Counted from the stretch's first letter, positions 2,040 to 55,021 are shown. The stretch: DNA of 64,000 nt from Candidatus Hydrogenedentota bacterium (GCA_963745075.1 CAVUWV010000031.1:138251-202250), one strand, 5' to 3'. The notes: a model not told the origin generated them from the sequence alone. Program-made: numbers and translations.

Positions 2040-3722
2040 ATGATTCACGTTACGTGTACCCAATGCGGATTGACGATAGCAGTGCCTCCCACGGTTCAAG
2101 GACGTTGGGGGGTGTGTTTCGCATGCGGTGCGCGACTTCTGGTTCCCCATACGTCGGACGGCGAGCGGGAACTCGACCTGCAGTTTGAACCCGGACACCG
2201 AATCTCCGATCGGTATGTGATCGAAGCGCCCGTCGGAAAAGGCGGGATGGGGGTGGTGTACCGGGCCCACGATAGCCTCATGAACGAGCGGGTGGCGCTC
2301 AAATTCCTGGATCCACGTATCGTACACACGCAAAAGGGCGTCCGCTTGTTCATACAGGAGGCGCAGGTCGCCCGCCGGCTTCGACACGAAAACATCGTTG
2401 CGGTTCATGATGTGAGCGCAACGCCCGATGGCATCCTGTACATCTCGATGGAGTTCCTCCAGGGACAGTCGTTGCGGGCCTATCTCCGGGGTCATCGGAA
2501 TCAACGCAAGCTGGTCAACGTACGACTCGCGGTAACCTTGACCGCCCAGGTTCTGGCGGCGCTCGATTACGCCCATCGGATTGTCATTCACCGGGACATG
2601 AAACCCGAGAACGTCATGCTACTGGCCGGCGAGCGCGTCAAGGTCCTCGACTTCGGGCTGGCCAAGGTGGTCGATGAGGAATGCCTCTTCTCGGACAAAG
2701 GTCCGGACGGGAAGTCCACGCGGGTGGTGGGGACGGAAGCGTACGCGTCGCCCGAGCAACTCCGGCACAGCGAGGTGGATTCTCGCGCGGACCTTTACAC
2801 GGTGGGTTTGCTGCTCCGGGAACTGTTGACACTTCGCACGCCGCTGGACGAGTTTGTGGAGGTGACCGCAGTCCGGGACGACGTTTCCCCGTCGTTGCTT
2901 GCGGTCTTGCAGAAAGCGGTTCAACTTCCGCGCGAAGACCGCTGGCAAACGGCCGGAGAGTTCCGAACGCAACTGCTGAAATCATTCGAAGAGTCGTATC
3001 GATCCGTCTTGGAGCCCAACATCGAGGTCGAGCCCGGCCGCGAGGTGTCTACCGAAGGGATGGTCTTTCTGGAGGGCGGCAGTTTCCTCATGGGGAACAA
3101 GAGCGTGCCGGACGAAGCGCCGGAGTTTGAGGCCACGGTCGAACCGTTCTTCATCGATGCGTATCCCGTGACGAACGCGCAGTATGAAGAGTTTCTGCGC
3201 GCGACCGGCCGGCCGTCACCCAAGCTTTGGGGCATTCCCGATTACCGCGGCGCCGATCAGCCAGTGATCGGGGTTACGTGGGAAGAAGCGGCGGCTTTTG
3301 CGATGTGGTCCGGGAAACAATTACCCACGGAAGCGCAGTGGGAATATGCGGCGCGGGGCAAGGAAAACCGGAAGTATCCGTGGGGCAACTATGAACCGGA
3401 CGCGCACAAGGCCAATTACGGGGACTTCCTGAATATGCCGTCCATCGTTTCGATGCACGAAGAAGGGAAGACTCCGGATAACGTCTACGATTTAGCAGGG
3501 AACGTACACGAATGGACTGCGGACCTGTATCTTCCTTACGATGCAGTGCGCCGCGAGGCTGCGGCCCGTACGGGACCGCCCAAACGTGTCGTGCGGGGCG
3601 GCTCGTGGCACTCTCCGGCGTCGGAACTCCGATGCACCGCGCGCAAGGGATTGTTTCCGGAAAGCGCGCAACCCACCGTGGGGTTTCGCTGCGTCGTACC
3701 GTTTCAAAGACCCGGGGGCTAA
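2040..3722 (+). CDS. Ser/Thr protein kinase fused to a C-terminal FGE-sulfatase (SUMF1-like) domain
   Basis: 560-aa ORF. N-terminal CxxC...CxxC ('CTQCGLT...CFACGA'). Hanks kinase motifs 'VALKFL', 'HRDMKPENVML', 'DFGLAK', 'ASPEQ'. C-terminal 'FLMGN...PVTNAQYEEFL...VTWEEAAAFAMWSGKQLPTEAQWEYAARG...RGGSWHS' is typical of the FGE-sulfatase family. Confidence 0.9.
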   Translation: MIHVTCTQCGLTIAVPPTVQGRWGVCFACGARLLVPHTSDGERELDLQFEPGHRISDRYVIEAPVGKGGMGVVYRAHDSLMNERVALKFLDPRIVHTQKGVRLFIQEAQVARRLRHENIVAVHDVSATPDGILYISMEFLQGQSLRAYLRGHRNQRKLVNVRLAVTLTAQVLAALDYAHRIVIHRDMKPENVMLLAGERVKVLDFGLAKVVDEECLFSDKGPDGKSTRVVGTEAYASPEQLRHSEVDSRADLYTVGLLLRELLTLRTPLDEFVEVTAVRDDVSPSLLAVLQKAVQLPREDRWQTAGEFRTQLLKSFEESYRSVLEPNIEVEPGREVSTEGMVFLEGGSFLMGNKSVPDEAPEFEATVEPFFIDAYPVTNAQYEEFLRATGRPSPKLWGIPDYRGADQPVIGVTWEEAAAFAMWSGKQLPTEAQWEYAARGKENRKYPWGNYEPDAHKANYGDFLNMPSIVSMHEEGKTPDNVYDLAGNVHEWTADLYLPYDAVRREAAARTGPPKRVVRGGSWHSPASELRCTARKGLFPESAQPTVGFRCVVPFQRPGG

Positions 3723-3810
3723 TGGACCGAGGCGTCCGCACGGGCAATTGACACGATGGGTGGTCGTGTGCTCGAATTTCACGGGCTGGAAGGAACACAG
3801 GAATTACCGT

Positions 3811-4464
3811 ATGAACAAACATGAGGCCATACGCTACTTGCTCGACAAATGTATCGTGGCCGTCGTTCGCGCGGATTCGGGGGGAGACGATCTGGTCCGT
3901 GTAGTGGAGGCGGTGGCGGAGGGAGGCGTCCACTGTATCGAAGTCACGATGACGACGCCGGGGGCCTTGCAGTGCATCGAGACGGCTTCCGCGACACTTG
4001 CCGGCGCGGATGTTCTGCTGGGTGTGGGCACCGTGCTCGATGCAGAAACGTGTCGAATGGCGATACTGGCCGGGGCCCAATATGTGGTCACGCCGACGCT
4101 TTCGGCGCCGGTCATTCAGATGGCCCGGCGCTACGGGAAACCGGTGGCGGCAGGCGCCTATACGCCCACGGAGATCCTGACCGCCTGGGAGCAGGGCTCG
4201 GATTTTGTGAAGGTTTTTCCGGCAAGTATCGGGGGTCCCGACTATATTAAAGCGATCAAAGGGCCGCTCCCCCAGATTCCATTGATCCCGACGGGTGGCG
4301 TAGAGGTAGATAACGTGGGTGCTTTTCTTAAGGCTGGGGCGTCCGCATTGGGGGTCGGCGGTAATCTGGTCGGCAAGAAACTGGTAGCCGCGCGGGATTT
4401 CGACGGCATTACGAAAAACGCGCGGGCGTTCGCGGAAGCGGTACACGCGGCACGGTCCGGCTAG
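3811..4464 (+). CDS. eda: 2-dehydro-3-deoxyphosphogluconate (KDPG) / 4-hydroxy-2-oxoglutarate aldolase
   Basis: 'MNKHEAIRYLLDKCIVAVVRAD...GGVHCIEVTMTTPGAL...GVGTVLDAE...AGAQYVVTP...FVKVFPAS...IPTGGV' matches the Eda pattern. ATG 3811 is preferred over the longest ORF start (3541), whose extra residues overlap the kinase 3' end and are low-complexity. Confidence 0.88.
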   Translation: MNKHEAIRYLLDKCIVAVVRADSGGDDLVRVVEAVAEGGVHCIEVTMTTPGALQCIETASATLAGADVLLGVGTVLDAETCRMAILAGAQYVVTPTLSAPVIQMARRYGKPVAAGAYTPTEILTAWEQGSDFVKVFPASIGGPDYIKAIKGPLPQIPLIPTGGVEVDNVGAFLKAGASALGVGGNLVGKKLVAARDFDGITKNARAFAEAVHAARSG

Positions 4465-4475
4465 CTGTCGGGTTC

Positions 4476-5420
4476 ATGAAACGACTATTGCAGGCGATCG
4501 GCCTTCGAAAACGAGACAAGGTCGCGCCGAATGCGTCGCAGCACGCCATCCAAGTCACGAGTACGGTCGACCGGCACAAACAGCCCTGCCTGTTTATCCC
4601 CTCCGATCGCGAAGGGGATCAAGCGCTCCTCGTCTACTTGCACCCGTGGCGCCACGGATACGATTTCGACTCGACCCCATGGCAACGCGAGGCAAAGGAA
4701 CGGGGATGGCACTTTCTCGCACCCCATTTTCGCGGCCCGAACCGGCGGCCCCAGGCCTGCGCATCGCGGTTCGCCCGGCAGGATGTGCTGGACGCGGTTG
4801 ATAGCATCTGTGCCGCGCATGCCGTGGATCGCGACCGCGTCTATGTGGGAGGGGTGTCCGGGGGCGGCCACATGGCGTTGGTGATGGCAGCGGAAGCGCC
4901 GGACCGATGGGCGGCCGTGTCGGCGTGGTGCCCGATCACTGACCTCGCCGCGTTCCACGCCGAATGTGTGGCGATGGAAGCGAAAGCGTACCGGCATGTG
5001 GAGAAGGTTGCCGGGGGCGCGCCGGGATCTTCTCCCAAGGTCGACCGTGAACTTCAGTACCGTTCGCCGGTTTTTCACATGGCAAAGGCGGCGCGTGTCC
5101 CCGTGGAGATTGCGCACGGCATTCACGACGGCCAACCTCGCGGCATTGGGATTCAGCACAGCGTATGGGCTTACAACGCCCTGGCTGAGTCATTGGGTGG
5201 ACAGAAGGTAACGGACGGGGAACTCGAGGCCCTTCGGGGAAAGCGAATTCCGGAGACATCCGATCGGACAGATCCGACGGATGGGTCCGATCCGTCGTTT
5301 GGGCGCGGGATCTATTTCCGGAGAACGGTAGGTCAATCGCGCCTGACCATCTTTGATGGCGGCCACGAGGACCTGCCCGCTGCGGCGTGCGCGTGGCTGG
5401 AGAATCACCGGCGCAGTTAA
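4476..5420 (+). CDS. alpha/beta-hydrolase, prolyl-oligopeptidase/esterase-like serine hydrolase
   Basis: 314-aa ORF with nucleophile elbow 'GGVSGGGHMAL' (GxSxG) and a distal 'HGIHDG' His region; typical S9/esterase layout. Confidence 0.7.
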   Translation: MKRLLQAIGLRKRDKVAPNASQHAIQVTSTVDRHKQPCLFIPSDREGDQALLVYLHPWRHGYDFDSTPWQREAKERGWHFLAPHFRGPNRRPQACASRFARQDVLDAVDSICAAHAVDRDRVYVGGVSGGGHMALVMAAEAPDRWAAVSAWCPITDLAAFHAECVAMEAKAYRHVEKVAGGAPGSSPKVDRELQYRSPVFHMAKAARVPVEIAHGIHDGQPRGIGIQHSVWAYNALAESLGGQKVTDGELEALRGKRIPETSDRTDPTDGSDPSFGRGIYFRRTVGQSRLTIFDGGHEDLPAAACAWLENHRRS

Positions 5421-5433
5421 GCTTCTCATAATG

Positions 5434-5463
5434 AAAACGCCGGACGGTTTCCCGCCCGGCGTT
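5434..5463 (-). terminator. Hairpin terminator between convergent hydrolase and rho genes
   Basis: 8-bp stem AACGCCGG (5436-5443) / CCGGCGTT (5456-5463). On the minus strand it is followed by TTTTCATT, just downstream of the rho stop (5495). Confidence 0.5.
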
Positions 5464-5494
5464 CGTGACAGGGTCGCTCGATGTCCCGCCGAAA

Positions 5495-6946
5495 CTACAT
5501 TTTCTGCATCATTGACAGGAAATCGGCGTTGGTCTTAGTCTTTCTCAACTTGTCGATGAGGAGTTCGGTGGCTTCCGTTACGCTGAGGGGACTGAGGACC
5601 TTGAGCAGCAGCCAGATGCGCTGCAGCTCGTCTTCGCCCACGAGCAATTCCTCTTTGCGGGTGCGGGATTTTTGCACGTCGAGCGCCGGGAACACGCGCT
5701 TCTCCATGAGGCGGCGATCCAGGTGAATCTCCATGTTGCCGGTGCCCTTGAATTCTTCGAAGATAACGTCGTCCATGCGGCTGCCGGTTTCAACCAGCGC
5801 CGTCGCGAGAATAGTCAGACTGCCGCCTTCTTCGATGTTGCGGGCGGCGCCGAAGAATCGCTTCGGACGTTGTAGCGCGTTGGCATCCACACCGCCGGAA
5901 AGGACCTTGCCGCTGGCGGGGACGATGACGTTGTACGCGCGCGCCAGGCGGGTAATGGAGTCCAGCAGAATGATCACGTCGCGCTTGTGTTCGACGAGAC
6001 GCTTGGCTTTCTCGAGGACCATCTCGGCGACCTGTACGTGGCGCTCCGGCGGTTCATCGAAGGTTGATGCAATCACCTCGCCTTTGACGGAGCGCGACAT
6101 GTCGGTGACTTCTTCGGGCCGTTCATCGATGAGCAACACGATGACGTGCGCTTCCGGATGGTTGATCCCGACGCTGTTGGCGATCTTCTGCAATAGCACC
6201 GTCTTACCCGTAAACGGCGCCGCCACGATGAGGCCACGCTGTCCCTTACCGATGGGAGAGATGAGGTCCATGATGCGCATGGCCACTTCTTTCTGTTCGG
6301 TTTCGAGGTTGAGGCGTTCGTTCGGGTGGAGGGGGGTCAGGTTGTCGAAGAGGATTCGTTCGCGGGCAACCTCGGGGCTTTCGTAATTGACGGCCTCGAC
6401 CTTGAGCAGGGCGAAGTACCGCTCGCCTTCTTTGGGCGGCCGCACATGCCCTTGAATCGTGTCACCCGTGCGCAGGGCGAACTTGCGGATCTGGGACGGC
6501 GACACGTAGATGTCGTCGGGGCCCGGCAGGTACGAGTAGTCTCCCGAGCGCAGGAATCCGAACCCATCGGGCAGGATTTCGAGCGTGCCTTCACCGTAGA
6601 GCGATCCGGTCGCCTCGATACTCTGTTGCAGGATGCGGAAGATGAGGTCCTGCTTCTTGAGTCCGCTGTATCCGTCGACGTTGAGGTTGCGGGCCGTATC
6701 GGCCAGCTCGGTCATCGTCATGCGTTTGAGATCACCAATGGCGATTTCCGGTCCGTTGGCGTTGGCAATAGCGTTCTCGCTCTCCGGGTCGTTCGCCACG
6801 TCCACTACGGGATGAGATGGACGACGGTCGCGGCCATGGTCGCGGCCGCCTCGCGAGGGCCCTCGTCCGGGACCACCCGAGTTGGACCGTTTTGGTTTGC
6901 CGCGCGGCCTGGAGTGGGACTTGTCGTTTGCGGTTCTCTCTGCCAT
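5495..6946 (-). CDS. rho: Transcription termination factor Rho, with an Arg/Gly-rich N-terminal extension
   Basis: 483 aa. '[18 protein letters not shown]' Rho-N, cold-shock-like '[14 protein letters not shown]', Walker A '[17 protein letters not shown]', '[10 protein letters not shown]', '[15 protein letters not shown]'. The first ~60 aa are R/G/P-rich and of low complexity. Confidence 0.97.
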
Positions 6947-7065
6947 TCATCTTCCTTTCGTATCCCTGAGTTCGGGGGAGGCGCGGATGCGCCGGGCACT
7001 CGTGGCATACCTGTGTTGTATCGATTGCCATAAATTCGCCACCGCTTACGGTGCTGCGTGACGTT

Positions 7066-9762
7066 CTAGTGTATTTCCGCCCAGTTGTCTCCGATTCCAA
7101 CGTCCACCTTCAGCGCGACGTCCAGTTCGACCGCTTCTTCCATGATGCGTTTCATTGTGGCGGCGGTTTCCTCGGCATTCGGCGCCGGCACTTCGACGAC
7201 CAACTCGTCGTGAACCTGCAGGATCAACTGCGCATCCGTCCCCTTCAGCGCCGCATCCAGGCGAATCATGGCGAGCTTGATGATGTCCGCCGCGCTTCCC
7301 TGTACGGGGGTATTCGTGGCAATCCGCTCGGCGGCCTTTCGCATGCTGGCGTTGCGGGACGTCAATTCCGGGACGTACCGCCGCCGCTTCAGCAGCGTAG
7401 AAACGTAGCCGTCGTTCGCCGCCTGTTTCAACGTCGTATCAATCCAGGTACGCACGCCCGGGTACTTCTGGAAATACTGATCGATAAACCGGGCGGCTTC
7501 AGCGTTCGAAATGCCCAGATTCCGGGACAGGCCGAAGGCGCTGATCCCGTAGATGACGCCGAAATTGACCGCTTTGGCCTGGCGGCGCATTTCGGAGGTG
7601 ACCAACTCGGGCATGACACCGAACACCCGGGCCGCCGTTTCCTGATGGATGTCGGCATCGTGTTCGAACGCTTCCTTGAGATGCGTGTCCCCCGAAAGAT
7701 GGGCCAGAATACGCAATTCAATTTGAGAGTAATCAGCCGAAATCAGCTTCCGGTCCCGATTCCGCGGAACGAATCCTTGGCGGATGCGTTTCCCGATCTC
7801 GGTCCGTACCGGGATATTCTGCAGGTTGGGGTCGCTGCTGGATAAGCGCCCGGTTGCTGCGACGGCCTGATTGAACGATGTATGTATTCGCCCGGTACTG
7901 GGGTTCACCAGTTTGGGCAATGCTTCGATGTAGGTTCCTCGAAGTTTTTCGAGTACTCGATATTCCAACACCTTTTCCGGCAAGGGGTGCTCGTGGGCGA
8001 GCACCTCGAGCACTTCCATATCGGTGGAGTAGCCCGTTTTCGTTTTCCGGATAGGCTTCAGCCCGAGCTTTCCGAACAGGATTTCCTGCAATTGCTTGGG
8101 CGAGTTTATTTGAAACGGCTCCCCTGCCGTTTCGTGAATATCGGCTTCCAGTGTTTTCAGACGCCCTTCGACTTCCTTCTGAAGGTCATCGAAGATGCGC
8201 AGGTTCACCCCGACGCCGGCCTGTTCCATACGGGCCAGCACTTGTATCAAAGGCCCTTCGACCTTGTCGAAGAGATCCGTCAAGCCTCGTTCGCGCAATA
8301 GCGGTTGAAACACCTCGGATAGGCGCCACGTGATATCCGCATCCTCGCAGGCATATTCACTCGCGCTCTCAACGGGAACGGTATCGAAGGTAACCGCTTT
8401 CGATCCCTTGCCGATCAGGTCGGATATGGGGATCATTTTGCGCTTGAGGTAGTGGAGACTGACTTCCTCCAGATTATGCCTCATCCGCCCGGCATCTGTC
8501 AAATACGAGGCTACCATCGTATCCAGCCCGATTCCGGTCAATGAAAGCCCCGCACGCCCCAGGACGATAAGGTCGTATTTGATATTGTGGCCGACCTTCG
8601 TGATTTCGGGGTCTTCGACCAGGGGCCGCAGGAGATCGAGGGCGGTCGAGCGGTCCAGCGGGGCGCCTTTTTGGGGCTTCGTGACGGACGCCATCGCCTC
8701 GTCCGTATGGCCGACGGGGATATAGTAGCCCTTACCCGCCGCACAACTCAGGGAGACGCCTACCAGTTCGGCGCGCATCGGGTCGGTCGAGGTGGTCTCG
8801 GTGTCGATGGCGAACGTTCCGGATTGGCGCATTTCCGCGATGGCCTTTTCGAGCGCTTCCCGTGTGAGTATGAGTTGATAGTCGGTGGTTTCGGTTTCCG
8901 CTGCGTCGGGCAGGTACTCTTCGAGCAGTGACTGGAATTCCAGGGCGTGAAATGCTTCGGCCAACTTTGACCGGTCTTCTTCGCCGCGGTGGCAATCCGC
9001 GATTGTCAGCGCCAAGTCCACGTCGGTTTTGATGGTGACCAGTTCGCGGCTCAGCATCGCGATAGCGCGGTCTTCTTCGAGTTTCTCGCGCTGTTTGCCC
9101 TTGAGTTCGTCGATGTGTTCGTAGATCCCTTCGAGGGAACCGTATTTTTCCAGAAGCGTTTTGGCGGTTTTCGGTCCGATGCCGCGCACGCCGGGGACGT
9201 TGTCGGCGGTGTCTCCCATCAGACCGAGCGCGTCGATGACGTGGGCCGGGTCGCAACCGAACCGTTCGCGAACTTCTTCGACGCCGTACCAAGCGCCACT
9301 CTCGCCCTTGCCAGGGTCATAAACCTTCACAGTGTCGTTGATGAGCTGGAGCATGTCCTTGTCGCCGGTGACCAATATGGTTTCGATGTTCTCCGATTCG
9401 GCGCGACGGGCCAAAGTCCCCATGATATCGTCCGCTTCGACCCCTGGTTGCGAGAAGATGGGGATGTTGAACGCTTTGACCAGTTCGTGGATGAGCGGGA
9501 ATTGGGACGAGAGTTCTTCGGGCATGGCTTCGCGATTGGCCTTGTACTCGGGATACATGTCGTCGCGAAAGGTCTTCCCGGGGGCATCGAACACCACGGC
9601 AATATGACTGGGTTCGTGTTCGCGCAGGAGTTTGAGCAGGATTCGCGCGAAGCCGTAGACGGCGTTGGTCGGCTGGCCTTTGGAATTGGTCAGGTTGCGG
9701 ATGGCGAAGAACGCGCGATACGCAAATGCGCTGGCGTCGATAAGAAACAACCGGTCAGCCAT
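7066..9762 (-). CDS. polA: DNA polymerase I
   Basis: 898 aa. 5'-nuclease 'LFLIDASAFAYRAFFA', 3'-5' exo 'FAIDTETTS', polymerase motifs 'SADYSQIELRILAH', 'RRQAKAVNFGVIYG', 'LQVHDELVVE'. Confidence 0.98.
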   Translation of the reverse strand: MADRLFLIDASAFAYRAFFAIRNLTNSKGQPTNAVYGFARILLKLLREHEPSHIAVVFDAPGKTFRDDMYPEYKANREAMPEELSSQFPLIHELVKAFNIPIFSQPGVEADDIMGTLARRAESENIETILVTGDKDMLQLINDTVKVYDPGKGESGAWYGVEEVRERFGCDPAHVIDALGLMGDTADNVPGVRGIGPKTAKTLLEKYGSLEGIYEHIDELKGKQREKLEEDRAIAMLSRELVTIKTDVDLALTIADCHRGEEDRSKLAEAFHALEFQSLLEEYLPDAAETETTDYQLILTREALEKAIAEMRQSGTFAIDTETTSTDPMRAELVGVSLSCAAGKGYYIPVGHTDEAMASVTKPQKGAPLDRSTALDLLRPLVEDPEITKVGHNIKYDLIVLGRAGLSLTGIGLDTMVASYLTDAGRMRHNLEEVSLHYLKRKMIPISDLIGKGSKAVTFDTVPVESASEYACEDADITWRLSEVFQPLLRERGLTDLFDKVEGPLIQVLARMEQAGVGVNLRIFDDLQKEVEGRLKTLEADIHETAGEPFQINSPKQLQEILFGKLGLKPIRKTKTGYSTDMEVLEVLAHEHPLPEKVLEYRVLEKLRGTYIEALPKLVNPSTGRIHTSFNQAVAATGRLSSSDPNLQNIPVRTEIGKRIRQGFVPRNRDRKLISADYSQIELRILAHLSGDTHLKEAFEHDADIHQETAARVFGVMPELVTSEMRRQAKAVNFGVIYGISAFGLSRNLGISNAEAARFIDQYFQKYPGVRTWIDTTLKQAANDGYVSTLLKRRRYVPELTSRNASMRKAAERIATNTPVQGSAADIIKLAMIRLDAALKGTDAQLILQVHDELVVEVPAPNAEETAATMKRIMEEAVELDVALKVDVGIGDNWAEIH

Positions 9763-47039: not shown

Positions 47040-48059
47040 ATGTCTAAACTGTCTTGCGGGTTGTTATGTAACATCACGTTTTACGGCATGGCTTGTCTTG
47101 CTGGGGGCAAAGCCCTGGCCCAGCAGGTGTTCTGGACTGACTGGGGCACCACCAAGGTTCAGGCGGGCAACGTTGATGGCTCCGGTTCCCCAACCGACCT
47201 CTTCGATAGCTCCGATGGGCTGAACGTCCCCGACGGCATTGCCGTCGACGTGGCGGGCGGTAAGGTGTACTGGACCGACATGAGCGCGAGCAAGGTTCAA
47301 GTGGGAAACCTGGACGGCTCCGGTTCCCCAACCGACCTCTTCAATTCCTCCGATGGGCTCAGCGCCCCCAACGACATTGCCCTGGACATTGAGGGGAACA
47401 AGGTCTACTGGACTGATTTGAGCATCAACACAGTTCAGGTGGGCAACCTGGACGGCTCCGGTTCCCCTGCAGTTCTCTTCGATAGCTCCGATGGGCTTGC
47501 CAATCCCATGGGTATCGCCTTGGACGTCGCGGGCGGCAAGGTCTACTGGACCGATTCTTACGCCAGCAAGGTTCAGGTGGGCAACCTGGATGGATCAGGT
47601 TCTCCAACGGACCTCTTCGATAGCTCTGATGGGCTTAGCGGCCCATGCTTTATCGCCTTGGACGTCGCTGGAGGCAAGGTCTACTGGACGGACGCCATCA
47701 CCCGCAAAGTTCAGGCGGGAAACCTGGACGGGTCCGGTTCTCCAACGGACCTTTACGATATCACCGATCTGCTTGACTTTCCCTGCGGCATCGCGGTGGA
47801 CGTGGCGGGCGGCAAGGTGTACTGGACCGACTCCGACACCCGCATGATTCAGGTGGGTAACCTCGATGGGTCCGGTTTCCCAACCGCGCTCTTCGACATT
47901 TCCGATGGCCTTAGCGACCCCATCGGCATCGCCTTGGGTTCGGGCGCGGCCCCACCGTCCGTCCCCGCGTCAAGCCGGGGAATGCTCTCGTTGACGGTTC
48001 TGGTCTTGGCGCTCTGCGCCGTGATCGCGGTATATCGTCTACGCGCGCGCCGGGTTTAG
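47040..48059 (+). CDS. Six-bladed YWTD (LDL-receptor class B-like) beta-propeller protein with a C-terminal hydrophobic/Arg-rich anchor
   Basis: Signal 'MSKLSCGLLCNITFYGMACLAGGKALA'. Six ~42-aa units 'GGKVYWTD...KVQVGNLDGSGSPTDLFDSSDGLS.P.GIALDVA' (one FWTD, five YWTD), encoded by ~126-bp tandem DNA repeats. Tail 'MLSLTVLVLALCAVIAVYRLRARRV'. Confidence 0.88.
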   Translation: MSKLSCGLLCNITFYGMACLAGGKALAQQVFWTDWGTTKVQAGNVDGSGSPTDLFDSSDGLNVPDGIAVDVAGGKVYWTDMSASKVQVGNLDGSGSPTDLFNSSDGLSAPNDIALDIEGNKVYWTDLSINTVQVGNLDGSGSPAVLFDSSDGLANPMGIALDVAGGKVYWTDSYASKVQVGNLDGSGSPTDLFDSSDGLSGPCFIALDVAGGKVYWTDAITRKVQAGNLDGSGSPTDLYDITDLLDFPCGIAVDVAGGKVYWTDSDTRMIQVGNLDGSGFPTALFDISDGLSDPIGIALGSGAAPPSVPASSRGMLSLTVLVLALCAVIAVYRLRARRV

Positions 48060-48209: not shown

Positions 48210-48599
48210 CTACCACGTTTCGAGCGACAGGCCTTCCACTTCCGTGAAATGCGCATCGCGGGCCACGAGCGTCAGGTCGTTCTGAAATGCCTGGGCCGCA
48301 ATCCAAATGTCGTTCTCGGGGATCGGTCGGCCCTTTTGTCGCAGTCGCTCTTTCACTTCACCATAGCGCCGGGCAGTCTCTGTGTCGCATCCCAAGACGA
48401 CGTTACGCGCCGCGAAATCATCTATGCGTTCCGTGTTGTCTGCCACTCTCGTCGACTTTTTTGCTCCGTAATACAGTTCGCCAAGGACCACGCTGGAGAC
48501 AAACAACTCCCCCGCTCCCCGAACTCGGTCTTTCACCGCCCCTTCGCCGGCAAACAGTGCAATAACAATGTTGGTATCCAACAGGTATCTACCATTCAT
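48210..48599 (-). CDS. vapC: Type II toxin VapC (PIN domain)
   Basis: 'YLLDTNIVIAL', 'VVLGELYYG', 'NDIWIAAQA', 'LVARDAHF'; 129 aa. The start overlaps the upstream antitoxin stop. Confidence 0.9.
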   Translation of the reverse strand: MNGRYLLDTNIVIALFAGEGAVKDRVRGAGELFVSSVVLGELYYGAKKSTRVADNTERIDDFAARNVVLGCDTETARRYGEVKERLRQKGRPIPENDIWIAAQAFQNDLTLVARDAHFTEVEGLSLETW

Positions 48600-48837
48600 T
48601 CACGTCGACCTGTTCGCAGCCTTCCTCAATTGCCTGTTGCATCAAGTGTAGGTCCTGTCGTGAAATCGTACCGGCAAACTCTACTAACTGCTGTCCGGGT
48701 ACCCCCCGGCGCTGTTCGGACCGCAGCGTCTCCACATACGCCAAGACTTGCCGTTGCAGGTCTTCCGGAAGAGCGTCGAGTTGCTCAATCACTTTACTCC
48801 GAATTGCACTGTTCATTTTGCTGTTCCTGTTTCCCAA
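48589..48837 (-). CDS. VapB-type antitoxin (DUF2281-like N-terminus)
   Basis: 'VIEQLDALPEDLQRQVLAYVETL...CEQVDVNEW'. 75-82 aa (ATG 48816 or 48837). Overlaps vapC by 11 nt. Confidence 0.75.
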   Translation of the reverse strand: MGNRNSKMNSAIRSKVIEQLDALPEDLQRQVLAYVETLRSEQRRGVPGQQLVEFAGTISRQDLHLMQQAIEEGCEQVDVNEW

Positions 48838-48932
48838 TATCGCGCGTGCCCGGTCGATGAAATGCGCTCAAACCATCACTCGTAGTATATCATCGAATCC
48901 CGAAATCAGGGGCACAATACTCTATTATTCGG

Positions 48933-49178
48933 TCAAAACATCCGCCTATCCAAACTCCTATCTTGGATCGCTTCGCTGACGTGGTTGTCGGCGATGGATT
49001 CGGCGCCGTCGAGATCGGCGAGGGTGCGGGCGACGCGGAGGACTTTATCGTAGGCGCGGGCGCTGAAACCGAGCTGGTTGATGGCTTGTTCGAGGAGGGC
49101 GTTGGCGCTGTCGGCGGGGGACACAGCCCGGTGCCGGACTGCCCGTGTATCAATCGGCCACATGCACTCCACCCCCAT
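48933..49178 (-). pseudogene. Orphan 3'-terminal fragment of a comM/yifB (Mg-chelatase-like) gene
   Basis: Encodes '...[60 protein letters not shown]', nearly identical to the C-terminus of the full comM at 53210. No upstream ATPase domain. Confidence 0.85.
48965..49116. repeat. 152-bp direct repeat, copy A (pairs with 53242-53393)
   Basis: By-eye alignment shows 5 mismatches in 152 nt against copy B. Weaker similarity extends to ~48910 / ~53189. Confidence 0.9.
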
Positions 49179-49833: not shown

Positions 49834-50088
49834 TCACCGCGCGTGATGCCTCCGGAACGCCGGAGACTTCGCCTGGATCTTGCGCACCGCCTCGGGCCCG
49901 TATATCCGCTCGCCGCAGTCAGGGCATTCGTAGTACTCCACGTTCGACACCGAGTATTTCTGGCCGTCGAATTCGCGCGTGAGATTTCCGCGAATCTTCT
50001 TTAACCTCTTGCTGTCACAGTTTGGGCACGCTCGAAGTTTCACTTGGCTAGGTCCCTTCTTAGGGTGATAACATACTTGACGACTCAA
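49834..50088 (-). pseudogene. YgiT/MqsA-type zinc-ribbon antitoxin-like gene whose 5' end was replaced by the IS1595 end
   Basis: 'CPNCDSKRLKKIRGNLTREFDGQKYSVSNVEYYECPDCGERIYGPEAV' is a CxxC...CxxC ribbon. Codons 1-8 ('MSRQVCYH') and the first base of codon 9 are encoded by the IS inverted repeat. The pre-insertion start 'MAILPKKGPSQ' is at 52596 on the other side of the IS. Confidence 0.7.
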
Positions 50089-50208
50089 GGCTATTTCTTT
50101 GGGGTGGGTTGAGACTTGGGCTGGCTCTTAGCGTCCGGCAAGCTGTCTTTCGGTGTATTCAAGATTTTGCGCAATGCATCGGAGAACACTGATTGGCCTG
50201 ATGATGCG

Positions 50209-50766
50209 TCACTCTTCTTTGTCTTTCTCGGCTTCGTCATGGGGTGGTAATTCCGTTTGTTTGATTTCGCTGGATAGGCTATCGAAGAATTCTTTTGGGG
50301 TCAGAATGACAATCTGATTCGCAAGCTGTTTCTTACAAGACAGTATCTTCGTCTTTTTCCGCTTGCCTTTATTGTCACCGTCTCTAGTGATGAAAGCCTG
50401 AGCTTTCGCCTCTATTGCTGTGGCTAAATGAATAGCATCTGGAGTGTCGAGTGGAAATCGCTTGCGAAGTTTACCGGCTTCCGTAGCGGTGCGAGCATTT
50501 ACCGCGTGAACCGTAACAAATTCCTGCCTAAAGAATGATTCGATTAACGCCGTGGCATCTTCGTCGCTTAATGTCGTCTTTTCTTTTTCGGACGTTTTTA
50601 CCTTGATAATCTCGGCTCGTGCCAAAACCGAAAGCACTATTTTTAAATTACCAGCCTCTGCGTCCTTAATAATAGGCTCGACGTGATTGTAGAAATCCGG
50701 ATCTTTTATAAGCGAGTCCAGAACCACGCACGAATCTAGGTAGATGAGCTTAGAATCTTTCGCCAT
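50209..50766 (-). CDS. PIN-domain nuclease (185 aa) with a Lys-rich C-terminal extension; IS passenger gene
   Basis: 'LIYLDSCVVLD' (Asp), 'LARAEII' (Glu), 'DTPDAIHLATA' (Asp), 'AFITRDGD' (Asp). Overlaps the upstream ORF by 17 nt. Confidence 0.8.
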   Translation of the reverse strand: MAKDSKLIYLDSCVVLDSLIKDPDFYNHVEPIIKDAEAGNLKIVLSVLARAEIIKVKTSEKEKTTLSDEDATALIESFFRQEFVTVHAVNARTATEAGKLRKRFPLDTPDAIHLATAIEAKAQAFITRDGDNKGKRKKTKILSCKKQLANQIVILTPKEFFDSLSSEIKQTELPPHDEAEKDKEE

Positions 50767-51541
50767 TACGAATCTTTCTTACATAATCCACCGGGTCTAT
50801 ACCTCCCGTAATATCCATAGGCGGGGCTTCCGAAATCTTGAGGTACTTGGGATCTGGAATCTTGTCGAAATCGTGAATTTCGATTGCAACCGGTACGCCT
50901 TTGTCCGTAAATCGGGCTTTCCCGTAGACTTCAATTTGTTTATGTAAGAAACCTTCGCTAAGACGGTCGATTTCAGTTTCAGGAAAGATACATTTGATCT
51001 TTTGGCCCGTTGCTTCTTCTTGGATGACAAACTCGTGATGATCATCGGAAGTTCTTATATCATATAGCTTACCATTAAAGGTCGTTATCTCGCTATGATA
51101 GGCTTGGACTCTTAACTGCTGGATGTTCGCGTTCGCGTGCATGGTAGGTGTAACTTGCCCATATTCCGATGACTTAAATGCGACCGTATTTACGTCTTTG
51201 AGAACGCCTACAATCTTTTGAACCGAATCCAGATCGGTGTCACTGAAATTTTTCGGCAACTTCTTCTTTTGCTCGATAGATCTCAGTCCGCCCATATATT
51301 CGCCAATAACCTTCCTTGGGAACGCGGGTTTGCGTTTATTTTGTCCGGTAATCGTTAGCATAAGTGGGCTTTTCATGCTTATCTTAGTTATTGCCCATTC
51401 TACTTCTATGTCTTTGTCTATTGCCTCTGCGAGGCCACGAAGAACGCCGATAGTGTTATTCAACACTGTGACAAAGGAATTGATCGGAACGATACCGCGC
51501 TCCGCATCAATCACGATTGTCAACTCCGCTTTCTTTCGCAT
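50750..51541 (-). CDS. Uncharacterised 263-aa protein, partner of the PIN gene; IS passenger gene
   Basis: Long ORF starting 30 nt after the transposase stop. No motif I can assign. C-terminal tail 'PPMDITGGIDPVDYVRKIRNGERF' ends inside the PIN start region. Confidence 0.7.
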   Translation of the reverse strand: MRKKAELTIVIDAERGIVPINSFVTVLNNTIGVLRGLAEAIDKDIEVEWAITKISMKSPLMLTITGQNKRKPAFPRKVIGEYMGGLRSIEQKKKLPKNFSDTDLDSVQKIVGVLKDVNTVAFKSSEYGQVTPTMHANANIQQLRVQAYHSEITTFNGKLYDIRTSDDHHEFVIQEEATGQKIKCIFPETEIDRLSEGFLHKQIEVYGKARFTDKGVPVAIEIHDFDKIPDPKYLKISEAPPMDITGGIDPVDYVRKIRNGERF

Positions 51542-51571
51542 CTTCTACCTCTTTGAGGTTTAGGTAAAAAG

Positions 51572-52504
51572 TTATGAAACGCATTCTCCGATGAGACGAT
51601 CATACGTCAACCGCTTACCAGCGATGGACTTCATTGCCGCATCGAATCGTTCCCGATCTGTCGCTCTACGGTTATTATACCGGAAAGCCTGCTCATCAAG
51701 GTATCGAAAAAGATGGAACGGTTCGACAGAAACATAGGTGCCTTTGAGTCCACGCTTTAGCAAGCTCCAGAAATTCTCCAGGCCGTTCGTGTGGACATTG
51801 CCTTTAGCATACGCCTCTGCATGGTCAATCACATGATGGACGAAATCCCGGGACAATCCATTGTAGCTTGCCAGTGCATCCGTGTGGACTTTCGATCCCT
51901 TTTTCACATGCCTGTGCACAATCGGTTGCACCGTCTTTCTGCGCGGATTCGGGATTAGTTCGGTGCGTACTTCGCCGTGACGTTCCAGAATACCCATAAC
52001 GATGGTTTTACCAACCATACCAGTGCCTTTAGCCTTGCGTTTCCCCTTGTGCATATTGCGGGCTTTGCCGCCGATGTAGCTTTCATCTACCTCGACTTCG
52101 CCCGAGAGCTTCCCGCCATCGTATTCATCCTGTAAAACAAGGCGCAGACGATGCATCATAAACCACGCGGACTTCTGCGTAATTCCAAGGGCGCGGCTAA
52201 TTTCGTAAGAGGAAACGCCATTCTTAGCGCTCACGATAACCCATAACGCTACAAGCCACTTATCTAATCCAAGTGGACTATCCTCAAATACGGTATTATA
52301 ACGGACGCTGAAGGACTTCCTACAATCACGGCACTGGAACTTACGGCGTGTGGGAAGATAGGTCACTTTCCCTGAATCGCAATGGACGCAATGAACACCA
52401 TCAGGCCAGCGGTGCGCTATGAGTGTGTCATGACAGGTGTCGAAGTCGGAAAAGTACTTGACCGCTTCGATAAGAGTTTCTGGATACTTGACTTGGGAAT
52501 TCAT
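51572..52504 (-). CDS. IS1595-family (ISXO2-like) DDE transposase
   Basis: N-terminal zinc ribbon 'HCVHCDSGKVTYLPTRRKFQCRDCRKSFS'. DDE_Tnp_IS1595 'VEVDESYIGGK', 'KTIVMGILERHGEV', 'VHTDALASYNGL', 'HTNGLENFWSLLKRGLKGTY', 'YLDEQAFRYNNR'. Confidence 0.93.
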   Translation of the reverse strand: MNSQVKYPETLIEAVKYFSDFDTCHDTLIAHRWPDGVHCVHCDSGKVTYLPTRRKFQCRDCRKSFSVRYNTVFEDSPLGLDKWLVALWVIVSAKNGVSSYEISRALGITQKSAWFMMHRLRLVLQDEYDGGKLSGEVEVDESYIGGKARNMHKGKRKAKGTGMVGKTIVMGILERHGEVRTELIPNPRRKTVQPIVHRHVKKGSKVHTDALASYNGLSRDFVHHVIDHAEAYAKGNVHTNGLENFWSLLKRGLKGTYVSVEPFHLFRYLDEQAFRYNNRRATDRERFDAAMKSIAGKRLTYDRLIGECVS

Positions 52505-52520
52505 TGGGTTTAATCTCCCT

Positions 52521-52910
52521 CTAATCTAAACCCATTATATCATGAAAAGTATGAGTCGTCAAGTATGTTATTGCCCTTCTTAGGCAGTATCGCCATCTCG
52601 TCTTGCCGTCCGCGCATTTGACGATGTCTTTTGCAACGTCTTGCGAATCAAGACTTGAAATATCCAATTCAAGGTCATCACAGACGGCGCGGAAGGCCTT
52701 GTCCGCCTCTTGCGGTAGCAAAACGGCGGTTACCGGGACATATTCTCCGCCACGGGTCGTTATCTCAAGGCACCCGCCGGTTTTCCCTGGCGATTGTAAT
52801 CTTCCCGTCAATTGCCGAAACCTGCAAAGTCTGGATACACATTCACGCCATGACCTCTCGTCCATATTGTTCAATTCTATCAAGAATCGTCTGGAGTGCA
52901 GCCTTGACAC
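52521..52910 (-). pseudogene. Hypothetical gene (possible toxin partner of the Zn-ribbon gene) whose 3' end was replaced by the IS end
   Basis: The last 17 codons ('AITYLTTHTFHDIMGLD') are encoded by the IS right end. Joining across the TSD restores '...WRYCLRRDLAK*', overlapping the original Zn-ribbon start. The 5' end is uncertain and overlaps the preceding gene. Confidence 0.45.
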
Positions 52911-53148: not shown

Positions 53149-53209
53149 TTCAATCCCCTTTCCGAGGTGGGCATACAGAAAATAGTGGACACAATACTCA
53201 ATCGTTCCG

Positions 53210-54746
53210 TCAAAACATCTGCCTGTCCAGACTCCGGTACTGGATCGCTTCGCTGACGTGGTTGTCGGCAATGGATTCGGCGCCGTCGAGGTCGGCGAGG
53301 GTTCGGGCGACGCGGAGGACTTTGTCGTAGGCGCGGGCGCTGAAGCCGAGCTGGTTGATGGCTTGTTCGAGGAGGGCGTTGGCGCTGTCGGCGATGACGC
53401 AGTGGTCGCGGATAGCTTTCGAGTCGAGGTGGGCGTTGCAGGTGTACGCGCCGTCGTAGCGGGCCCGCTGCCGGTCGCGGGCGGCTTGCACCTCGGCGCG
53501 GACTTCCGCGCTGGTGGGTCCGCTGGGCCGCCGGTCAATCAATTCCTCGAAACTCAGCGGGGGCACGTCGATGTGGATGTCGATGCGGTCGAGCAAGGGC
53601 CCGGAGAGACGCGCCATGTAGCGTTGCACCTCGCCGACGCTGCACCGGCATTGGCGTTTTGGATCGGTGCGGCAGCCGCAGGGGCAGGGGTTCATCGCGA
53701 CGACGAGCATGAACCGGCTCGGGAAGGTGACGGAATACATGGCCCGGCGAATGTGGACCAGCCCTTCTTCGAGGGGTTGGCGGAGGACTTCCAGGGCGCT
53801 ACGGTTGAACTCGGGCAACTCGTCGAGGAACAGGACGCCGTGGTGGGCGAGACTGACTTCTCCGGGCGTGGGTTGTTGCCCTCCCCCGCCGCCGCTGATG
53901 GAGACGGTGGTCGCGGTGTGGTGCGGCGAACGGAAGGGCCGCCGCACGATGAGGTCGCCTTTCTCCTGGACGCCGTTTGCGACGCTGTAGATGCGGGTCG
54001 TTTCGAGGGCCTCTTCGAAGCTCATGGTGGGCAGAATTCCCGGGAGCCGCGAGGCGAGCATGGTCTTGCCGGTTCCCGGCGGGCCGATCATGAGGAGGTT
54101 GTGCCCGCCCGCCGCGGCCACGGTCAGTGCGCGTTTGACGTGGGCCTGTCCCTTGACCTCCGTAAGGTCCGGGATGTCGTGGTGGGCCTTATCGATGACC
54201 GCCTGCATATCCGTACGGAAGGGCAGAATCTCTTGCGCGTCTGCCATGAAGCCGACGGCGTCGGTCAGGGTCGCGGCGGGGATGACTTCGATGCCGGGCA
54301 CGACGCCGGCTTCCTCCGCATTCGCTTCGGGCAGGACAATCCCGCGCAGGCCCTGTTCGCGCGTGGCGATAGCCATAGACAGGGCGCCGGAAACCGGCCG
54401 TAGGGACCCGTCGAGGGCCAACTCGCCCGCGAGAACGTAGTCATTAAACCGCGGTCCGGCGATCTGTTCGGAGGCCGGCGAGCATCCCCAAGGCAATGGG
54501 CAAGTCGAGGGCGCTGCCTTCCTTGCGAATATCGGCGGGCGCGAGATTGATGACCGTGATTCCGCGCGGATACCGGAACCCGGAGTTCTTGAGGGCCGAG
54601 CCGACGCGTTCCTTGCCTTCCTTGACGGCCGCATCGGGCAAGCCGACGAGGTAGTACTGGTTGCTGCCGGGGTGGTTGTCGACCTCGATGGCAAGGGGAT
54701 ATCCGTCGATTCCGATAACGGCGCATGATTGGACCCGGGCAAGCAT
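53210..54746 (-). pseudogene. comM: Mg-chelatase-like ATPase ComM/YifB, interrupted by one extra nucleotide (~54476)
   Basis: N-terminus '[22 protein letters not shown]...[12 protein letters not shown]' (ATG 54746) is in one frame. '[23 protein letters not shown]...[13 protein letters not shown]...LFLDELPEF...AMNPCPCG...' is in the +1 frame and runs to stop 53210. Confidence 0.88.
53242..53393. repeat. 152-bp direct repeat, copy B (inside the functional comM 3' end)
   Basis: See copy A (48965-49116). Confidence 0.9.
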
Positions 54747-54837
54747 GGTTCGTGCGTTTCCTTGATACAGTCAACCCCTACACTCGACAGCATCTTAGTG
54801 TCTGGAGGCGGCGCGTTCAAGAAGACGACTGGGCAGA

Positions 54838-55021
54838 GGAAGAAACATCCCCCTCGACCCTTCGGGTCTGCCCCCTTCAAAGGGGGATTCCCTGGCCCGC
54901 GCTTCGCGGGGCGATTGCGATGAATAAAGGTCTTCAAGTTTGCTGTTTGTCGTTGCGTTCACCCGAAACCCGGGTCTACGAAACTCCCCCTTCGAAGGGG
55001 GATCAAGGGGGATGTTCTTCC
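54838..55021. repeat. REP/MITE-like element: 16-17-nt terminal inverted repeats enclosing GC-rich palindromes
   Basis: GGAAGAAACATCCCCCT (54838-54854) versus the reverse complement of 55006-55021 (GGAAGAACATCCCCCT). Internal palindromes are CCCCCTTCAAAGGGGG (54871-54886), the perfect CCCCCTTCGAAGGGGG (54986-55001), and GACCCTTCGGGTC (54856-54868). Confidence 0.6.

Follow-up and report, generated by a model that had tools for sequence, protein, structure and literature searches.

A complete IS1595-family transporter insertion sequence carrying an OB-fold–PIN gene pair, a candidate mobile toxin–antidote or defence module

What are two genes other than the transposase doing inside an intact insertion sequence (IS)? 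The question is raised by a locus in a 64,000-nucleotide (nt) stretch of DNA from a Candidatus Hydrogenedentota bacterium (GCA_963745075.1 CAVUWV010000031.1:138251-202250), the whole of which we call the window, where an IS1595-family element encodes, behind its transposase, a 263-amino-acid (aa) protein and a PIN-domain nuclease. An earlier note on this DNA had singled out the two genes as a candidate mobile toxin–antitoxin (TA) or defence module of an undescribed kind. The conserved pairing of the genes, the lack of a family match for the partner of the nuclease and the IS ends that bracket both support that proposal at the level of a candidate, and we lean towards regarding the pair as a member of a widespread, undescribed VapC-type toxin–antidote family or defence module that rides on an active transporter IS (tIS). 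The principal features of the locus, with positions counted from the first letter of the window, are these:

50056..50063, no strand: left copy of the target-site duplication (TSD) CTTCTTAG, a perfect 8-bp repeat
50064..52575, minus strand: complete IS1595-family tIS of 2,512 bp, with an inverted repeat (IR) pair and an 8-bp TSD
50064..50087, plus strand: PIN-distal terminal IR GGTGATAACATACTTGACGACTCA, 24 nt
50209..50766, minus strand: VapC-type PIN-domain nuclease, 185 aa, whose start overlaps the partner gene by 17 nt
50750..51541, minus strand: open reading frame (ORF) of the 263-aa partner protein, starting 30 nt after the transposase stop
51572..52504, minus strand: intact IS1595-family DDE transposase, 310 aa, with an N-terminal zinc ribbon and a DDE domain
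52534..52562, minus strand: sigma-70-like promoter TTGACG-17-TATAAT, with a TG-extended -10 and 11 of 12 consensus positions, called on its consensus match only
52552..52575, minus strand: transposase-proximal terminal IR GGCAATAACATACTTGACGACTCA (reverse complement), 24 nt, holding the -35 hexamer of the operon promoter
52576..52583, no strand: right copy of the TSD CTTCTTAG, a perfect 8-bp repeat

Examination of the ends shows that the two 24-nt IRs stand in inverted orientation and agree at 22 of 24 positions, and that the 24-mer has just two occurrences in the window and none in 100 shuffles. The perfect direct repeats beyond them are 8 bp long, which is the usual length of TSDs in the IS1595 family. 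The repeats lie exactly where the earlier note had placed them, and the gene layout that it described also holds: on the minus strand of the 2,512-bp IS the transposase comes first, the OB-fold protein (see below) follows and the PIN gene is last. The transposase, which the note had called ISXO2-type, matches the Pfam families DDE_Tnp_IS1595 (PF12762, 4e-44) and Zn_ribbon_IS1595 (PF12760, 1.9e-10) and the NCBIfam model transpos_IS1595 (NF033547, 6.6e-56). It is at most 39% identical to the IS1595 transposases of sequenced plasmids, and a blastn search of plasmids with the whole IS gave no match; relatives at 55-62% identity, 578 of them confirmed, come from soil, peat and bog metagenomes. The segment is AT-richer than its surroundings, as had been noticed, with a GC content of 49.5% in the transposase gene, 43.7% in the 263-aa ORF and 44.4% in the PIN gene, whereas the flanks have 58-61%. 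In an independent public assembly (Logan, run ERR11594398; L003 in our numbering of loci), 3,384 bp that run across both junctions are 100% identical to the window. When the IS and one TSD copy are removed in silico, an MqsA-like zinc-finger ORF regains its start (MAILPKKGPSQ...), which indicates a simple insertion. The element thus has the hallmarks of the IS1595 family, namely a DDE transposase with a zinc ribbon, bounding IRs and an 8-bp TSD, and those of a tIS, given that two cargo genes lie within the unit bounded by the IRs and TSD and that cargo of the same type is found elsewhere without a transposase. On these sequence features it is an intact, recently transposed tIS of the IS1595 family, the mobility of which we infer from the TSD.

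The putative promoter lies 30 nt upstream of the transposase ATG and its -35 element falls within the transposase-proximal IR; no terminator-like site was seen between the three genes on their own strand. The transposase and the two cargo genes therefore appear to form one operon, co-transcribed from the predicted IR promoter. As for regulation by RNA structure at the start of the PIN gene, a 33-nt imperfect inverted repeat there pairs in the minimum-free-energy fold, but with a z-score of -0.61 this candidate was rejected. A 49-aa lysine-rich ORF (50091-50240, minus strand) overlaps the 3' end of the PIN gene and takes up the greater part of the 121 nt that separate the PIN stop from the end of the IS; it matches no family and is not seen conserved after the PIN gene in two other loci (L001 and L004), and is probably not a gene.

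The 263-aa protein, which the earlier note had termed unrecognisable, indeed has no Pfam or NCBIfam match at E<=1; the term does not stand at the level of structure and family size, where an OB fold and a large family were found. An exhaustive HMMER search of 1.84 billion representatives of 50%-identity clusters recovered 638 clusters at E<=1e-3, of which 258 reach E<=1e-10; the 150 best homologues are nearly all 250-280 aa long and align end to end. Pfam matches among 100 family members that were aligned (alignment A1) are isolated and weak (DUF4431 in two, three unrelated families in one each, best E 5e-4). A word-indexed protein search returned few relatives, 3-5 for the 263-aa protein and 3 for the PIN, and a peptide-pattern search of the genome collection with the 263-aa protein, which detects near-identical genes only and is silent on distribution, gave no match.

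The predicted structure and the alignment together suggest three segments, an alpha/beta domain (residues 1-146), an OB fold (~148-226) and a conserved tail (~227-263). The AlphaFold2 model built from the family alignment has a pLDDT of 94.8, and a Foldseek search of the PDB with it, which the earlier note had proposed, matched residues ~148-226 only, as an OB fold at E ~1e-4. The matches comprise anticodon-binding domains, those of LysRS, AsnRS and AspRS, and OB folds that bind single-stranded DNA (ssDNA), those of Stn1 and Teb1; by this model the partner holds a nucleic-acid-binding OB fold. The family profile found no sequence relative in the PDB. Modelled alone, the N-terminal 146 residues reach a pLDDT of 96.5 and have no significant structural neighbour in the PDB by Foldseek; a ferredoxin-like fold was considered and dismissed as noise (best E 0.065). 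No AbrB, RHH, Phd or HTH DNA-binding domain was detected in the partner by Pfam, NCBIfam or Foldseek, in agreement with what had been read from the sequence. The tail, with the consensus IDITGGxDSxxYVRxLRD, is the most conserved segment outside the core (T244, G246 and R257 in at least 90% of the A1 members) and is still recognisable in the 20%-identical protein of locus L028.

The best matches in a viral structure library extend over the greater part of the partner model (261-297 alignment columns, TMq 0.39-0.52), and are a DUF6575 protein and Q6NE06, an uncharacterised 381-aa protein of Leptospira phage LE1 (E 2.6e-10, TMq 0.52). The only 381-aa coding sequence of LE1 is LE1-0037, which matches the PADLOC candidate PDC-M02B (1e-64), and its neighbour LE1-0038 is PDC-M02A and matches Pfam DUF4365. 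Of the viral-library entries, the one closest to the partner in predicted structure is almost certainly PDC-M02B. A sequence link between the two was sought by hhalign of the family profile against LE1-0037 and rejected (probability 0.1); since this is not significant, the resemblance is kept at the level of the fold. PADLOC also gave a weak, partial match of the partner to PDC-M32A (1.3e-6, residues 85-193).

The downstream nuclease matches Pfam PIN (PF01850, 1.3e-12) and PIN_3 (2.9e-9), has the four acidic positions that had been noticed (D11, E52, D110 and D129), and bears a C-terminal extension of ~55 aa. Among 12 PINs that accompany the partner family, E52, D110 and D129 are invariant and D11 is present in at least 90%, the exception being cut at a contig end. 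The closest solved relative of a profile made from these PINs is a VapC ribonuclease (7by2_B, 3e-7), and by analogy with VapC proteins we take the PIN protein to be a candidate RNase.

To what extent the two genes belong together was judged from the genomic contexts of 15 distinct partner-family members, 20-67% identical to the window protein, a small sample in which most contigs are short. A PIN of one subfamily is the next gene downstream of the partner in all 14 contexts that reach that far (the window, L001, L002, L004, L005, L007/L008, L009, L028, L090, L091/L092, L093, L098 and L100; L101 ends too early downstream). Where the window has a 17-nt overlap at the junction, the 13 other contexts have either an overlap of 8-17 nt or a gap of 13-31 nt, and the pairwise identities of partners and PINs co-vary (r=0.69, 54 pairs). 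At locus L002 an intact partner gene is followed by a PIN truncated to 68 aa, an order of decay that is expected if the PIN is the toxic member. Together these sequence comparisons support the view that the partner and the PIN form a conserved, translationally coupled two-gene unit.

Counting from the partner protein and not from the transposase, the module lies directly behind an IS1595 transposase gene or its remnant in 7 of the 14 contexts whose upstream sequence is long enough to judge. In these the partner gene is preceded by:

Window: full transposase, with IRs and TSD; 30-nt junction
L100: last 58 aa of a transposase, 69% identical; 32-nt junction
L002: transposase 3' end (...LTGECPA*), 30-nt junction; seen by eye only, tblastn negative
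L101: transposase truncated to residues 71-147 (E 1e-17)
L090: C-terminal 38 aa of a transposase (E 2e-4)
L028: complete transposase at 59% identity; IR pair with a spacing of 3,425 bp
L098: complete transposase at 48% identity; identical GGCAATTATATACTTGACTTAAC ends with a spacing of ~2.8 kb; contig classed as viral

Six contexts have no transposase (L001, L004, L005, L007/L008, L009 and L091/L092), and modules of this kind outside IS elements indicate that the pair is cargo and not an IS function. The nearest relatives of the IS-borne partners are themselves non-IS partners: those of the window and L100 group with L004, that of L098 with L007 and that of L090 with L009. Between the window and L028 the transposases are 59% and the partners 20% identical, and between the window and L098 the figures are 48% and 31%. 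This incongruence between transposase and cargo similarity, along with the non-IS nearest relatives, favours, on a small sample of sequences, repeated capture or exchange of the module by IS1595 elements over simple co-divergence. L098 was the single true locus to emerge from a scan of viral contigs for the C-terminal motif of the partner. Its contig (IMG/VR UViG_3300045253_000047, 3409-8068) holds a pair of oppositely oriented IS1595 transposase genes separated by ~0.9 kb, and one of them belongs to the OB–PIN element; this element also has a 100-aa zinc-ribbon ORF, and no TSD was found for it.

How the IS itself relates to others was examined at the best 80 of the 578 confirmed transposase-relative loci (L010-L089), among which the OB–PIN pair occurs in L028 only. 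An IR pair could be detected in 36 related loci, namely 35 metagenomic loci and L003, which is the window element. All 36 bounded elements are 1.9-3.6 kb long and carry cargo, some of it recognised defence systems, and no minimal IS of ~1.1 kb is among them; the earlier note had asked for the same IS with and without cargo. Perfect 8-bp TSDs flank 22 of the 36 (21 relatives and L003). The IR consensus of the bounded relatives is GGnAAnAAtATACTTGAC, which presumably resembles the end motifs of ISNwi1 or ISPna2 and is offered as a lead only, and the core of the PIN-distal IR, ATACTTGAC, is common to related elements. The extra DNA of the relatives is diverse and in every case falls within the interval from the transposase stop to the distal IR:

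L035 and L079: DUF3800 cargo by Pfam; L017, L021, L032 and L083 cluster with them by BLAST
L036 and L058: split HipA kinase
L042 and L081: D12 methyltransferase, together with a second protein that matches PD-Lambda-5_A (7e-122)
L086: AbiLi (8e-50) with a DUF3226/PDC-M38B-like protein
L089: PIN with two unknown proteins; L084 has the same two unknowns
Further relatives: several cargo proteins of unknown family, 250-320 aa

As judged from these sequences, the related IS constitute a clade of tIS with cargo enriched in toxin and defence genes. Cargo proteins of 296-318 aa in L047 and L043 show an Rx4H motif and are suspected HEPN proteins, by eye only and with no family match. The TSD 8-mers of the window element and the 21 relatives often take the form C(T)nnnnAG (for example CTAAGAAG, CTAAAAAG, CTTGTAAG, CCAACAAG and CAAAAAAG), which may point to a weak target preference. 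The only exact IR match in a collection of species-representative genomes is in a Pyrinomonadaceae metagenome-assembled genome (DATNBH010000002.1; L006, 349-372), where it is a solitary end with no transposase in ~2.2 kb downstream and a degenerate inverted copy (…CAGTATGTTATCGAC…) ~280 nt downstream. This locus may be a derivative resembling a miniature inverted-repeat transposable element, and hints that Acidobacteriota host this IS lineage.

In light of these contextual and structural connections, we propose that the 263-aa protein is an antidote and/or sensor of the PIN nuclease. The predicted sigma-70-like promoter would drive the transposase and then the translationally coupled cargo pair, of which the PIN would be the effector and the 263-aa protein the cognate partner that keeps it inactive. 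The conserved, arginine-containing tail of the partner is the best candidate to bind or occlude the acidic active site of the PIN, in the manner of VapB C-termini. The PIN could be released when the partner is degraded or its synthesis stops, in which case loss of the element would have an addiction effect; alternatively, binding of a nucleic-acid trigger, for example phage ssDNA or RNA, to the OB domain may set the PIN free, in an abortive-infection response. A module inside the IRs would be copied at each transposition and could penalise loss of the IS. Physical interaction, toxicity, neutralisation, trigger and RNA target are all parts of this scheme that we infer. In a bolder form, OB–PIN would be a widespread anti-phage abortive-infection family in which the OB domain senses phage nucleic acid and frees the RNase, and the IS1595 clade would act as defence shuttles of 2-3.5 kb that swap cassettes; this version we entertain tentatively and would sooner doubt than accept. 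If it were true, the clade would be the smallest autonomous vehicles known for immune genes, with OB–PIN, PD-Lambda-5, AbiL, HipA and DUF3800 set on a transposase–IR chassis.

Several observations weigh against a toxin–antidote or defence role. The partner, at 263 aa, is about three times the size of the VapB antitoxins (~70-100 aa), as had been pointed out earlier, and its lack of a DNA-binding domain leaves autoregulation, a hallmark of type II TA systems, with no visible basis. Both proteins fall outside the validated defence families: no PADLOC model matches the PIN, and the PDC-M32A match recurs in only 2-3 of 100 members of the partner family. In tblastn searches of 72,556 plasmids and 50,697 phage genomes neither the 263-aa protein nor the family consensus found a homologue, so that the usual plasmid and phage habitat of TA and defence genes is undocumented for the partner family. 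The small number of contexts and the shortness of most contigs count on the same side, and so does the nature of the best PDB matches of the OB fold, anticodon-binding domains and ssDNA binders, which suit a recruiting subunit as well as an inhibitor.

This last point leads to the main rival, a two-subunit nuclease, in which the OB protein would recruit the substrate of the PIN, be it ssDNA or a specific RNA such as a tRNA anticodon loop, and the complex would be the active enzyme, serving defence or RNA processing. A large, well-folded partner that has neither a DNA-binding nor a degron-like disordered region would fit such an enzyme, and strict pairing with co-variation fits any obligate complex. 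Yet the order of the genes and their overlaps of 8-17 nt are typical of operons in which antitoxin precedes toxin, the truncation of the PIN beside an intact partner in L002 is a decay that a holoenzyme would not favour, and the conserved C-terminal tail is left unexplained. To our knowledge, moreover, VapC enzymes need no targeting subunit, and we consider a two-subunit nuclease unlikely. A role in transposition, with an ssDNA-binding OB protein and a PIN/FEN-like nuclease processing or regulating IS1595 intermediates, would account for the position of the module behind a transposase in half of the 14 contexts, for the junction of ~30 nt in three of them (30 in the window, 32 in L100 and, by eye, 30 in L002) and for the apparent co-transcription from the predicted IR promoter. 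It is rendered very unlikely by the occurrence of the module without transposases in six contexts and by the fact that related IS transpose with other cargo: the pair is present at just one of the 80 related transposase loci, and the bounded relatives carry unrelated cargo yet show fresh TSDs. IS-borne and non-IS modules are also interleaved by similarity, and the PIN profile matches VapC RNases and not FEN-type nucleases.

The pair could also be a neutral hitch-hiker that came by accident to lie between the transposase gene and a new IR, and that at present serves neither IS nor host. The cargo GC of 44%, against 49.5% in the transposase gene, suggests a separate origin and the PIN of L002 has decayed, but in the window both ORFs are intact with all catalytic residues present, and the family is conserved over its full length in the 258 clusters found at E<1e-10. 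Furthermore, like modules stand behind transposases 48-69% identical to that of the window when the modules themselves are only 20-37% identical, and such divergent modules behind related transposases point to a repeated or long-maintained association; we accordingly hold the hitch-hiker to be highly improbable. That the locus is no single element, being instead an ordinary IS of ~1.1 kb beside a chromosomal TA pair with a chance match for a distal IR, has in its favour solely that most IS1595 members are ~1 kb long. No IR copy stands beside the transposase stop, the 24-mer recurs in the 64 kb at 50064 alone, the 8-bp TSD encloses the 2,512-bp unit, the removal of which restores the MqsA-like ORF start, and the same long architecture with TSDs recurs in 22 bounded elements; this explanation we practically discount. 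A toxin–antidote or defence pair carried as tIS cargo is thus the reading that we retain.

The surroundings of the element offer further observations. The IS is inserted in about the 5th-7th codon of a gene for an MqsA/YgiT-type zinc-finger protein (TIGR03831, 9.6e-10; 49834-50088 and 52521-52910, both minus strand). Just ahead of this gene, and in slight overlap with it, is a 122-aa ORF of no recognised family, so that the insertion may have cut a toxin–antitoxin operon in two. The interrupted locus now has a hybrid MqsA-like ORF with a TTG start inside the IS end (MSRQVCYHPKKGPSQ...), which could be expressed by read-through from the IS operon, since no terminator-like site was seen after the PIN gene on that strand. 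A 214-nt direct repeat of 91% identity (48903-49116 and 53180-53393) corresponds to the 3' end of a comM/yifB-type Mg-chelatase-like gene, of which 53210-54937 holds the full copy and 48933-49178 a C-terminal fragment of 81 aa. Between the repeats lies an insert of ~4.06 kb with the IS and the MqsA-like locus. The repeats resemble the att duplication that a small island without an integrase would leave in a known integration hotspot. Just outside the repeat is a canonical, small VapBC-like pair (48210-48837, minus strand), in which a 129-aa PIN (PF01850, 2.2e-19) is preceded by an overlapping 82-aa ORF with no Pfam match; the neighbourhood is rich in toxin–antitoxin genes. Further out, at 47504-47937, are three tandem copies of a ~138-nt unit, 74-77% identical to a 158-nt reference copy.

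The partner family is large, has no Pfam or NCBIfam model and is strictly coupled to a VapC-type nuclease. If it supplies an antidote or sensor, it would represent a structurally unprecedented class of partner for the largest prokaryotic toxin family and would provide a testable link between nucleic-acid sensing and PIN activation. The soil and peat IS1595 clade with its defence cargo suggests that plain IS also move immune and addiction genes, beside prophages, integrative elements and Tn7-like transposons, which bears on the assembly of defence islands and may explain the retention of some IS copies. Should the function fail to be confirmed, a well-documented new tIS with hypothetical cargo remains.

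Comparison with VapBC systems reveals both kinship and departure. Shared with them are a VapC-type PIN with the acidic quartet, an upstream partner gene that is coupled to and overlaps the PIN start, and the form of a small bicistronic module in variable or mobile DNA. The small antitoxin with an N-terminal DNA-binding domain (AbrB, RHH, Phd/YefM or HTH) is replaced here by a protein with an N-terminal alpha/beta domain and an OB fold, which has no sequence relation to any VapB and, lacking such a DNA-binding domain, is not a VapB. The candidate systems PDC-M02 and PDC-M32 likewise combine a small protein with a partner of ~260-380 aa, the predicted fold of which is similar to that of the 263-aa protein. 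PDC-M02 differs in having DUF4365 where the present pair has a PIN effector, in the reversed gene order and in the absence of significant sequence similarity between PDC-M02B and the partner; neither the partner nor the PIN matches a PDC-M02 model. Nor does the pair qualify as PDC-M32, given that the A model is only partial on the partner and the PIN has no PADLOC model. Both of these are themselves only candidate systems.

As for the vehicle, transporter IS of the IS1595 family are reportedly treated by Siguier, Gagnevin & Chandler (2009), and Benler et al. (2021) are said to describe the defence cargo of Tn7-like transposons. The tIS concept itself is set out in PMC7986276 and PMC9330008, and the IS1595-family elements tISCpe8 and MTnSag1 have passenger genes inside IRs of ~25 bp (PMC5704250). 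The window element resembles such known tIS in its IS1595 DDE transposase, in the length of its IRs and in having its passengers within them, and differs in that theirs are lincosamide resistance and mobilisation genes whereas the window element and its clade carry TA or defence-type cargo; in the literature we found nothing specific on TA or defence cargo in IS1595 elements or on an OB-fold partner of a PIN toxin. TA gene pairs occur in Tn3-family transposons, according to a study that PMC9330008 cites as its reference 152. With Tn3- and Tn7-like transposons the element has in common a TA or defence module as integral cargo, plausibly stabilising the element or helping the host, but it is a minimal single-transposase IS of 2-3.5 kb with neither resolvase nor targeting machinery. 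New PIN partners and defence-carrying mobile elements are in principle unsurprising. What is known here is the presumed VapBC-like working, the IS1595 family and the tIS class; what is new is a class of partner for PIN toxins and an IS1595 tIS that carries TA or defence cargo.

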